DNA of 64,000 bases from an uncultured bacterium (GTDB lineage: Bacteria > Zhuqueibacterota > QNDG01 > DTFT01): positions 1 through 64,000 of the forward strand of contig CAVTNR010000012.1 in the NCBI GenBank assembly GCA_963736115.1, given 5' to 3'. This document shows positions 3,902-9,276 of the stretch, piece after piece. Each line of letters opens with the position of its first letter. Position 1 is the first letter of the stretch. Both the position numbers and the translations under genes were made by a program. The notes under the pieces are model-generated. The model was not told where the DNA came from, ran no database searches, and saw nothing but the letters and a program-made list of their open reading frames with translations.

Positions 3902-5577
3902 ATGACATTGCTACGACGACTTGCCCTCGCGCTGCCACTGGCCGTGGCGGCGTGTTTCATTTCTTTGACACCTGTACAGGCGGAGGAGGGCCAGCGGGTG
4001 ATCCTCGTTCTGGATGCCTCGGGCTCCATGTGGGGGCAGATCGATGGAAAGCCCAAGATGCAGATCGCCAAGGAGGTGGTCGCCAAGGTCGTCGGCAGCT
4101 GGAAGCCGGAGGACGAACTTGGCCTCGTGGCCTATGGCCATCGCAAGAAGGGTGCGTGCGACGACATTGAAGTGCTGGCCGAGCCCGGAAAGCTCGATGC
4201 CGCGTCGTTTCTTGACAGGGTGAACGGCCTCAATCCCAAGGGCAAGACGCCGATGACGCAGGCCGTGCGGCAGGCGGCCGAGGCGCTGAAATATACCGAG
4301 AAGCAGGCGACCGTGATCCTCGTCTCCGATGGCATCGAGACGTGCGACCCGAACCCCTGCGCGGTTGCCGAGGAACTTGAGAAACTGGGCGTTGCACTCA
4401 CCGTTCACACCGTTGGCTTCGGCCTCGACGACAAGGGCGCGGTCGAGCAGCTCAAGTGCCTCGCCGAGAAGACCGGCGGCATCTCGACCATCGCCGACAA
4501 TGCCGACGAACTGAAGGACGCGCTCACCAAGACGGTCGAGGCCAAGACCGAACCTCCGCCGCCGCCGCCTGAACCCGCCGCGCCTGAGTTCAACGTGACG
4601 GGCACGGTCGAGATGGCCGAGGGCGTTGGCTTCCCGCCGAAGTTTTCGACGCCCAACTGGGAGTTCTTCCGTGCCGTGAACGGTGAGAAGGGCGAATGGG
4701 TGAAGACGGAGTATGGCTCGGCGATCAAGACCAGCATCGAGACGCCCGGAGCCTATATCGCCAGGGTTTCTCTCAGTTCTGCTGCCATCGAAGTGCCCTT
4801 CGTTCTGGAGGCCGGAAAGCCGGTTCAGCTCGATGTCAGCCTGGAAGCGGGCGTCGTGCAGTTGAAGGGCATGATGGATGCCCAGACACCGCTGGCCGAA
4901 GGCAAGGGAACGTGGGAACTGCTGACGACCGAGGGCAACTGGCTTGCCACGGAATATGGCCCGCAGGCCGCATTCATGGCGAATGCCGGCACTTACAAGA
5001 TGAGGCTCACGCTGGGCGAGGCGAAGATCGAGCAGGATCTGACGGTCACGCCCGGCAAGATCGACGACGTGGTGATGACGCTGGGTGCCGGTATCGTGCA
5101 GGCGTCGGCTGTCTTCGCGGCGGGCGGCCCTGCGGTTCCCGAAGGCGCAACATTCGAACTGCGCAAGGCCGAGGCCGCTCTCGACGGCAGTCATGAGTGG
5201 ATTGCGACCGAATACCAGTCGCCGTCGCAGTTCAACGTGCCCGCGGGCAAGTACCTGCTGGTGGTGATCCGCGACTACGCCACCGGCTCGACCGAGGTTC
5301 AGGTGACGCCGGGTGGTGTCACCAAGGTCGAGGTCAATCTCGACGGGGGCTATCTGGCGCTTACCGGTCCAGCAGACGCGACATTTGAGGTTTATGGCAG
5401 CGAGAAGGATATCGCGGGCAACCGCAACCGCGGATCGCCACGGAATTCAATGGCCAGTTCAACAAGGCGTTCAATGCCGGCACATACCATGTCGTGGCGA
5501 GCAAGGATGGCACCGTCGTCGCCGAAAAGGACTTCGAGGTGAAGGCGGGGCAGCGCACCGAAGGCACGATCCCCTAA
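3902..5577 (+). CDS. Exported VWA-domain protein with C-terminal repeated beta-sandwich modules (frameshift near 5430)
   Basis: Signal peptide; MIDAS motif DASGSMWG; VILVSDGIETC; Pro-rich linker; repeated W(I/L/V)xTEY modules. Confidence 0.85.
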
Positions 5578-7270: not shown

Positions 7271-7557
7271 GGGCGGGCAATCCTCAGAGTTGGTGTTGCG
7301 GCATCATAGACCCTGCGGGGCGGATGATGCCAGACGTCCCGCACGTCTCTGCAAGCCGATTGTGGCGCTTCCGCAACAGGAACCGGTCATTTGAGGGCAT
7401 TCTTGCAGTTTCTGCTTGTGAGCGAGGTGCGACAGGCTAGAGGCCCGCTCCCCGGACGGACACCGCCCGAGCCCAAGCGGGTCAAGCTCGTGAGCTTGCC
7501 TGGCGCAGCGTCTCCCTGAGATCCGTGTGTACCTGGGCCGGAACAGGACGTCCGGTT

Positions 7558-7630
7558 GAGGATGTAGCTCAGCGGTAGAGCGCCGGCGATCCGCCGGAGG
7601 TCGTGGGTTCGAGTCCCGTCGTCTTCTCCA
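7558..7630 (+). ncRNA. tRNA-like element 1 with aberrant anticodon arm and encoded CCA
   Basis: Acceptor GAGGATG/CGTCTTC; D arm GCTC-AGCGGTA-GAGC; CCGGC-GATCC-GCCGG arm with 5-nt loop; T arm GTGGG-TTCGAGT-CCCGT; ends TCCA. Confidence 0.8.
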
Positions 7631-7703
7631 CTGCGAATAGCTCAGTTGGTAGAGCAACAGATTGGACTCTGTTGGTCGAAGGTTCGATTCCTTCTACGCA
7701 CCC
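7631..7703 (+). ncRNA. tRNA-like element 2 with 6-nt anticodon loop, mismatched acceptor stem and no CCA
   Basis: D arm GCTC-AGTTGGTA-GAGC; ACAGA-TTGGAC-TCTGT; T arm GAAGG-TTCGATT-CCTTC; acceptor CTGCGAA/TACGCAC has two mismatches. Confidence 0.75.
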
Positions 7704-7740
7704 GCGGCGTCAAACCCGCAACAGGCTTTAACCTGTCTTT

Positions 7741-7970
7741 GAACTGAGCCTTCCGGAGTGGCTGGCGCAAACCGTCGATACATCCGCGCAAGCGGAGGTG
7801 GAGGTGGTGCAACGCCGCCCGCATCCTGCCTGTGCCGCGGAGTGCCGCCGCAGCGCGCCTCGGGACCTGGCTCTGACGCAGCCCTGGCTGTCAGGCTCCG
7901 TCCCGCTGGCCCGCCGCGCTGGCGCCAAGGCCCGCAAGGTGCCGGTCCAAGGCCGCTCCGGAAGGTGTTC
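7741..7970 (+). ncRNA. Putative multibranch structured RNA upstream of the slipin gene
   Basis: Closing helix CCTTCCGGAGTGGC / GCCGCTCCGGAAGG; internal TCCGC-GCAA-GCGGA, GGTGG-TGCAACG-CCGCC, CAGCGCG/CGCGCTG, GGGAC/GTCCC. Confidence 0.55.
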
Positions 7971-8060
7971 GCAATTCAACCTCAACCTCAAACCCCAAGC
8001 CCAACGACGACAAAGGAAAATCCGCCTCATGCGATGAGCTGACGCGACCGAAGAAGGAGA

Positions 8061-9236
8061 ATGACGATGATCGAAGTCCGCAAGTTTCTGCTCCGCACCC
8101 GGGTCACCGTGCCTGAGGGCGAGCGCGCCATCGTGCTGGTCAACGGCAAGCTCGATACCATTCTCCGTCCGGGGCGTCACTTCTTCACGGCCATCGAAAG
8201 GTCGGTCTCCGTCGAGGCGCATGCGCTGAAGGACCCGGTGTTCAACAGCGGCCTTGAAGGCGCGTTGCGGCAGTCGCGGCCCGATCTGGTGGCCGAGCAC
8301 TTCACCGACGTGCGGACGGGGGCGCAGGAGACTTGCCGTCATCTATCGCGATGGCAAGCTCTACTGGGTGGTGAAGCCCGATTCACGCACGCTGCTGTGG
8401 ACGGATGCCGGGCCGTGGAGCATCGAGACGGTGGACGTCTCGTTGTCGCTCGCGGTGCCGGAGGCGCTGGCCCAGCGGGTCATCGGATCGGGAACGGTCG
8501 ACCGCATCAAGCGCTTCGGCGTGGAGGAGGGCCAGGTGGGCCTGCTCTACATCGAAGGCGCCTTCGCGGGAAGGCTGGAGCCGGGCATGCACTCGTTCTG
8601 GAACGTGGGCCGCACGGTCAACGTGAAGATCGTCGACACGCGCCAGCACGCGCTGGATGTCACGGGCCAGGAAGTGCTGACCCGTGACAAGGTCTCGATC
8701 CGGGTGAACCTCGTGGCGCGCTACCGCGTCACCGATCCGGTGAAGGCGGTGGCCTCGGTGAAGGACTATGCGGATGCGCTTTACCGCGCGCTGCAGCATG
8801 CCTTTCGCCAGTCGCTGGCCGCGAAGACGCTCGACGAACTGCTGTCGCGCAAGGGTGACACCGATGCCGAGGCGGCGGCTCGGCGTGAAGTCCGAGATGG
8901 CGGCGATCGGGATCGAGGTCGCGCGACATCGCCATCAAGGACGTGATCCTGCCGGGCGACATGCGCGAGATCCTGAACAAGGTCGTGACGGCGGAAAAGG
9001 AGGCGGAAGCCAACGTCATCCGCCGCCGCGAGGAGACCAACGCCACGCGTTCGCTGCTCAACACCGCGAAGGTGATGGCGGAGAACCCGGTGATGCTGCG
9101 GCTGAAGGAACTGGAGGCGCTCGAAAAGATCGCCGACAAGGTCCAGTCGCTGACCGTGCATAACGGAACGCGCGGTCTTCTCGACGACCTCGTGTCGCTG
9201 CGGCCCGGCTCCGACACGCCGAAGCCCAAGGCCTGA
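8061..9236 (+). CDS. Slipin / SPFH (band 7) family protein (about three frameshifts)
   Basis: RBS AAGGAG; LEPGMHSFW...VDTRQHALDVTGQEVLTRDKVSIRVN; DVILPGDMREILNKVVTAEKEAEANVIRRREETNATRSLLNTAKVMAENPVMLRLKELEALE. Confidence 0.9.
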
Positions 9237-9241
9237 CGATC

Positions 9242-9276
9242 AGCCCTCCCTCCGCCAAGCCGGGGGGAGGGCGCTC
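9242..9276. terminator. Hairpin between convergent slipin and ABC permease genes
   Basis: GCCCTCCCTCCG...CGGGGGGAGGGC inverted repeat. Confidence 0.5.

Follow-up and report, generated by a model that had tools for sequence, protein, structure and literature searches.

The window, a stretch of 64,000 nt of DNA from an uncultured bacterium, was analysed around positions 7741-7970, where an earlier note had described a multibranch RNA fold between a tRNA-like pair and the start of a slipin gene. The fold was found to be one part of a leader of about 620 nt, in which promoter-like boxes, a 110-nt 5′ domain, two tRNA-like genes, small hairpins, the junction, a linker, and a Shine-Dalgarno sequence with a mini-ORF are followed by the slipin gene. 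Individual related loci are given by their L numbers. The features of the unit were as follows.

7416-7440, + strand: promoter-like boxes TTGTG (7416-7420) and CTAG (7437-7440) with a 16-nt spacer, found by regular expression
7445-7557, + strand: conserved 5′ leader domain, starting with CCGCTCCCCGG, delimited by motif spacing
7558-7630, + strand: tRNA-like gene 1, with a 5-nt anticodon loop (Rfam tRNA, 53.7 bits; ARAGORN)
7631-7703, + strand: tRNA-like gene 2, with an irregular anticodon loop and a mispaired acceptor stem (Rfam tRNA, 52.1 bits; ARAGORN "tRNA-???")
7704-7719 and 7721-7736 (within 7704-7738), + strand: two small hairpins, the second with a 6-nt loop
7741-7970, + strand: three-way junction (P1, P2 and P3), from the minimum-free-energy fold and covariation
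7748-7763 with 7951-7966, plus 7741-7744 with 7967-7970, + strand: P1, the closing helix
7764-7816, + strand: P2, a hairpin arm with a GNRA tip at 7783-7796
7817-7946, + strand: P3, the long arm
7971-8011, + strand: C/A-rich, G-poor linker, kept in 5/5 sequences of the window's own clade and absent in clade B (both clades are defined below)
8012-8037, + strand: Shine-Dalgarno sequence AAAGGAAA (8012-8019) and two-codon mini-ORF ATG CGA TGA (8029-8037), in a small hairpin
8054-9236, + strand: slipin (SPFH/Band-7) gene, with Shine-Dalgarno AAGGAG at 8054-8059, ATG at 8067 and TGA at 9234-9236
9243-9273, + strand: GC-rich hairpin past the stop codon of slipin, where the unit may end, read from the sequence and uncalled by the terminator scan

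The promoter-like boxes were searched for with a regular expression (TTG[CT]N, 16-17 nt, a CTA-type box, 4-6 nt, then CCGC..CCCG). The full pattern was present in 14/27 loci, and near variants were seen by eye in others; in the 14 matched loci, the CCGC..CCCG motif lay 109-121 nt before the first tRNA-like gene. A scan for E. coli-type consensus promoters and terminators called nothing in the window. A sigma-54 promoter was considered and rejected: the close clade yielded none, and a sigma-54-like box occurred in the Citrobacter relative only.

Contigs from RNA libraries (four runs of four studies, 189-240 nt long, with 1-7 differing letters) started at 7458-7469 and ended at 7657-7697. These contigs, from libraries of a kind that may also hold DNA, hint that transcription starts near 7458, a position that fits with initiation shortly downstream of the promoter-like boxes. 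Beyond the tRNA-like genes, one contig reached 7773 and another covered 35 nt (7905-7939). Most of 7774-8400 had no contig in the same four runs, and the contig data are uninformative either way on the junction. The interval from the junction to slipin was free of genes, called terminators and sigma-70 boxes.

By eye, tRNA-like gene 1 had a G3:U70 pair and an encoded UCCA end; G3:U70 is the identity element of alanine tRNA. Many relatives carried one or two hairpins resembling an anticodon arm (5 bp with a 7-nt loop) between tRNA-like gene 2 and P1, with U as the second base of the loop and a purine as the sixth; examples are L066 (3382-3417), L082 (2106-2140) and L090 (455-488). These hairpins might be decoys for anticodon nucleases.

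The unstructured A/C-rich linker that had been noted after the fold was present, with a length of 51 nt (C19 A18 G7 T7). Its bias was shared by L063, the closest relative (C15 G3), and by L065 (C30 G5). The linker has CAACC-type repeats and extends up to 64 nt in L065. At 7971-8011, it has the look of a site for Rho loading or of a translation enhancer of the CA type. The Rho-loading reading was left as an idea; a C-rich and G-poor linker occurred in the window's clade and a few other loci, and not in clade B.

The Shine-Dalgarno sequence with a two-codon mini-ORF was found in 26/29 close loci. The length of the mini-ORF was fixed and its sense codon varied (CGA, CAC, CAA, CCA, ACA, TCC, ACC, CCT, ACG, AGT and others). 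Its stop lay 29 nt before the slipin start in the window and roughly 16-37 nt before it across loci. The exceptions were L080 and L085, with TTG CGA CGA CGA and a stop, and L077, with no clear mini-ORF. The distant loci had ORFs of 3-4 codons (by eye).

The middle frame of the slipin gene matched Pfam Band_7 (2.7e-19), and its homologues were annotated as "slipin family protein". The window's slipin lies in three frames, with single-base insertions near 8331, 8884 and 8923 in comparison with L063. Slipin was intact in 9/9 homologues from genomes (379-388 aa).

Structure, coding content and copy number of the fold

The minimum-free-energy fold of 7741-7970 on the + strand had an energy of -129.2 kcal/mol, compared with -110.99 ± 5.06 kcal/mol for 200 dinucleotide shuffles (z = -3.60), and 1 of the 200 shuffles was as stable as the native fold. 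The minus strand gave z = -2.08. When the 520 nt before slipin were folded, a helix of at least 12 pairs spanning 195-280 nt appeared in 30/32 real loci of the close clade and in 34/96 shuffles. The GC content of the folded DNA was 65-68%, so that energy by itself is weak evidence. Neither the folding energy nor the long helix was kept as proof, and covariation was taken as the stronger evidence because long helices are common in shuffled GC-rich sequence.

The helices described in the earlier note were recovered at the places given there. Its 14-bp closing helix (7749-7762 with 7952-7965) lies inside the predicted P1, with 7759:7955 as the sole G-U pair, and the proposed extension was present in the minimum-free-energy fold of the + strand, in which GAAC at 7741-7744 pairs with GTTC at 7967-7970. 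The hairpin with a GNRA loop at 7783-7796 was kept among relatives, with loops GCAA, GCGA and UUCG and compensatory changes in the stem, and the long nested arm was largely kept. A hairpin shaped like a T-arm (7802-7818) formed in the single-sequence fold; it was unsupported in the 5-sequence consensus, because its 3′ half pairs elsewhere there.

The fold is not protein-coding, in agreement with the earlier note. Two overlapping ORFs over it had no Pfam family, and against L063 it has indels of 2, 1, 1, 1, 3 and 1 nt. Inside the fold, 178/212 positions were identical to L063, and 953/1117 were identical in the protein gene, about the same rate of divergence.

Rfam gave no credible match to 7741-7970, in agreement with the statement that no described RNA family could be recognised. 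At gathering thresholds, the scan of the window with Rfam 15 gave three tRNA matches only, and the stretch 7300-8100, scanned at E values up to 10, gave nothing credible on the fold. Only tRNA and suhB were matched in 9 homologous loci. A dispersed repeat was looked for and not found: the fold was single-copy in the 3.34-Mb assembly. DNA searches of 60 related genomes, plasmids and phages gave matches confined to the tRNA-like parts, and in the 60 related genomes the fold was unmatched except for one match of 35 nt.

Covariation within and between clades

The window's own clade consisted of the window and L063-L066 (alignment A2, 5 sequences). RNAalifold predicted P1, P2 and P3 for this clade, with 78 pairs. 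In the alignment, 82.9% of cells were paired, compared with 73.5% in shuffles, and 28/78 pairs had changed on both sides, compared with 16.1 ± 2.4 in shuffles; 0/500 shuffles reached this number. Controls in which the structure was slid had 8-18 pairs with change on both sides. P1 was paired in 93.8% of cells and had 5 compensatory pairs. The middle of P2 was weak (71% paired, zero compensatory pairs).

Clade B consisted of 17 sequences, Novosphingobium included, and was the source of the covariance model R1. RNAalifold gave 47 pairs for these 17 sequences, of which 34 were compensatory. R1 also found L082 (142.5 bits), the AT-rich L089 (42.2 bits) and L096 (20.7 bits). The 19 best R1 matches, 17 of them used to build R1, were aligned as A7, an alignment that was fitted to the R1 structure and is therefore biased towards it. 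With this bias, 90.0% of cells were paired in A7, compared with 73.3% in shuffles, and 36/47 pairs had changed on both sides, compared with 22.3 ± 2.2 (0/500 shuffles); the slid controls gave 14-24 pairs.

The search for homologues and covariation suggested in the earlier note thus gave compensatory change above the controls in the window's own clade and in clade B. These results showed that the fold domain is kept by compensatory change in both clades, and that 7741-7970 holds a real RNA domain of three arms that evolution has maintained.

A clade of Devosia-like sequences had the same layout of P1, P2 and P3, with 81 pairs, 9 of them compensatory, and little variation. In a distant clade that includes L124, which is linked to RtcB, P1 and a second long helix covaried (12/23 pairs). 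The domain measured about 210-250 nt across clades, and its layout was kept where the slipins were only 52-58% identical.

No sequence link between the clades was detected. With default filters, R1 did not detect the window's element; with the filters off, its best score there was 4.6 bits, on the wrong strand. The nhmmer profiles of the clades did not cross in either direction, no conserved sequence core was found across clades, and a single MAFFT alignment of all clades (30 sequences) recovered P1 alone. The shared short strings CCCGCT, GGCCCGC and TGCCGGTCC were not counted as a link, because they may occur by chance in GC-rich sequence. From position, size and shape, we infer that the clades carry one homologous domain; these are the basis of the proposed cross-clade homology because R1 and the profiles fail to cross.

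Distribution and genomic neighbours

Among the 31 species genomes of the window's class, this slipin was absent except in one (G000), and the unit is therefore sporadic. Nine loci, whose slipins were 52-86% identical to that of the window, came from the scan of species genomes. In the metagenome scan, at least 566 stretches encoded slipin relatives, and 80 of these were taken for analysis.

One or two tRNA-like genes were present upstream of slipin on the same strand in 9/9 genome loci, with a spacer of 330-390 nt between them and slipin. ARAGORN detected an upstream tRNA or tRNA-like gene on the same strand in 57/80 metagenome loci; 16 of the 23 loci for which it called none have less than 300 nt of upstream sequence. 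Wherever the three-way junction was found, the tRNA-like gene(s) preceded it and slipin followed, all on one strand. In the metagenome loci L112, L114 and L122, the tRNA-like gene and slipin were closely preceded by arrays of 4-8 tRNA genes that look ordinary. In L148, a gene of the CCA-adding or poly(A) polymerase type (342-1619, PolyA_pol and HD) came immediately before the tRNA-like gene and its slipin.

The neighbours were surveyed in 127 flanking ORFs of 27 loci. Those of the close loci were unrelated housekeeping genes, with leuA, malate synthase, polA, ABC transporters and fatty-acid synthases among them. With such housekeeping neighbours, the RNA and slipin therefore travel as one self-contained unit. 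None of RtcB, RtcR and RlaP lay beside the window's unit or the close loci among these 127 ORFs, and RtcB adjoined the unit only in the distant L124.

The sole RtcB in the window's genome lies on another contig, and no tRNA-like gene was found near it. RlaP and RtcR were not found in this genome, which is 87% complete. Slipin relatives of 36% identity in E. coli and Citrobacter precede a nucleotidyltransferase gene. The Citrobacter slipin lies behind the divergent activator gene rtcR, and its leader has a sigma-54-like box and a sequence like a T-arm. A gene with a von Willebrand factor A domain (3902-5542) lies on the same strand, 2 kb upstream of the window's unit, with PhzF-like and UPF0093 genes between; it is probably unrelated to the unit.

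Relation to described systems and possible roles of the junction

[quoted passage not shown] The summary lists the b7a-tRNA without experimental validation as of 2018. The tRNA-like pair of the window is this predicted b7a-tRNA. The window's locus resembles the predicted system in having a tRNA-like gene directly upstream of Band-7/slipin on the same strand, and distant relatives of its slipin adjoin rtcR and an NTase, or RtcB (L124). However, the preprint's summary describes the system with a tRNA-like RNA only (bioRxiv 10.1101/312249), whereas two tRNA-like units, a 110-nt 5′ domain, a 230-nt junction and a mini-ORF were found here. The linkage with RtcB, RtcR or RlaP that the system leads one to expect is absent at the window's unit.

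The bacterial Y RNAs YrlA and YrlB lie in the rsr-yrlBA-rtcBA operon, and the likeness to them, as far as these sources describe it, is that of a structured ncRNA with tRNA mimicry in an RNA-repair operon, upstream of protein genes (PMC7790460; bioRxiv 10.1101/312249). The YrlA model, however, scored 22.9 bits against a gathering threshold of 69, across the two tRNA-like genes only and off the junction. No TROVE/Ro60 (rsr) gene was present among the window's neighbours, and the junction contains no tRNA-like module.

Very short upstream ORFs occur as leader-peptide attenuators, as "start-stop" elements and as two-codon minigenes, for example lambda bar. The leader of the window is similar to them in that a Shine-Dalgarno sequence and a tiny ORF lie in a hairpin just before the gene that would be regulated. 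It differs from them in having one unconserved sense codon, no terminator after it, and a large structured domain before it.

No mention of a larger RNA was found in the literature on b7a-tRNA, on Band-7/SPFH with RtcB, and on RtcR with slipin, in which the 2016 original was represented by the 2018 preprint's summary. A 2026 paper on Pseudomonas SPFH proteins places one of them within an rtc locus and, in the text available, says no more of it. In comparison with print and Rfam, the covarying 230-nt junction, the fixed two-codon ORF and the stand-alone module appear to be new; the RNA-repair system itself is known as a prediction. The longer conserved leader, the predicted Band-7 and b7a-tRNA system and the two-codon mini-ORF go beyond the earlier note.

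Taken together, the element is very probably the conserved three-way-junction domain of a composite leader, belonging to a stand-alone module of b7a-tRNA and Band-7/slipin. How it would act is a more tentative matter. A single transcript would start near 7445-7458, and tRNA-processing enzymes would cut it at the tRNA-like units; structures that resemble tRNA are cut by such enzymes. The junction would then stay as the tightly paired 5′ part of the slipin mRNA and act in cis. There it could shield the processed 5′ end and, with the linker and the mini-ORF hairpin, set the amount of slipin. In the window's clade, the junction overlaps neither Shine-Dalgarno sequence, so that a simple switch is not apparent. 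This cis mechanism, taken by itself, falls somewhat short of an even chance, and the best explanation as a whole, identity and mechanism together, is evenly balanced.

The earlier note had proposed either a discrete ncRNA processed from the same transcript or a cis-regulator of slipin. Its structured, conserved and non-coding RNA tied to the tRNA-like pair and slipin was borne out, and both of its alternatives are retained. For the former, the junction could be a stable ncRNA, alone or with the tRNA-like units, that serves as the cognate partner of a slipin cage, taking part in RNA repair or quality control as a scaffold or as a mimic of a substrate. Y RNA with Ro60 and vault RNA with the vault are analogues of such a partner. 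The domain is long, its closing helix of 16-20 bp would protect both ends, and its arms are capped by tetraloops; its divergence from L063, about the same as that of the protein gene, also fits. In clade B, a U-run seen by eye directly after P1 could end a discrete RNA, but the window's clade has neither a U-run nor a terminator past P1. A Band-7 scaffold with a cognate tRNA-like RNA was itself proposed by Burroughs and Aravind, according to the preprint's summary (bioRxiv 10.1101/312249). Against this, the sequence is barely conserved between clades, which would be unusual for an RNA bound by a specific protein, and a cofactor role of this kind is considered rather unlikely, though a serious rival to the cis reading.

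Two further readings make the leader a sensor, and in both it would take the place of RtcR in the stand-alone modules. One combines the junction, the anticodon-arm-like hairpins and the mini-ORF into a protein-free sensor of damage to tRNA or the ribosome. Such a sensor would activate the slipin cage when decoy arms or tRNA mimics are cleaved or ribosomes stall at the mini-ORF, and so do the job of RtcR; this speculation is improbable. The other sees the junction as a riboswitch-like or tRNA-binding sensor of damage (cleaved tRNA, 2′,3′-cyclic-phosphate ends or a small molecule) that would signal to the mini-ORF and slipin and replace RtcR. The close loci lack adjoining RtcR, RtcB and RlaP, RtcR was not found in the 87%-complete genome, and the homologous slipin of Citrobacter stands behind rtcR and a sigma-54-like box, all of which would agree with such a replacement. 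The 3′ strand of P1 in clade B can, by eye, pair with a downstream CCGGG-type segment instead, as a switch would, but this alternative pairing is absent in the window's clade. There is also no pocket-like sequence core conserved across clades and no Rfam riboswitch match, and a junction that senses damage by itself is quite improbable. The U-run and the CCGGG-type alternative were seen at L068 (3640-3665), L075 (2166-2190), L100 (2368-2390) and other clade B loci.

So far, the Band-7/b7a-tRNA branch of RNA repair in bacteria has been predicted by computation only. If its RNA part is a multi-domain leader of about 620 nt and not just a single mimic of tRNA, the system's models will need revision. 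The leader offers concrete elements that can be mutated and tested in cultivable carriers such as Novosphingobium mangrovi HK4-1 (L068) and N. beihaiensis (L069). The junction may represent a new family of structured RNAs, and the stretches with slipin relatives, at least 566 in number, are a large pool of loci to search.

That the region has no function, being a GC-rich spacer that folds as any GC-rich RNA does or a remnant in decay next to a broken slipin gene, would agree with the long-range helices of the shuffles, the three insertions in the window's slipin and the lack of a sequence signal across clades, but is very improbable given compensatory changes above both controls in two independent clades, a size and layout kept at slipin identities of only 52-58%, and slipins that are intact in all nine genome homologues.

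If the three-frame slipin is real, the window's copy is decaying. Assembly error is at least as likely as decay as the source of the insertions; they may be such errors because at 7508, too, the window carries one base more than L063 and than the contigs of all four RNA runs.
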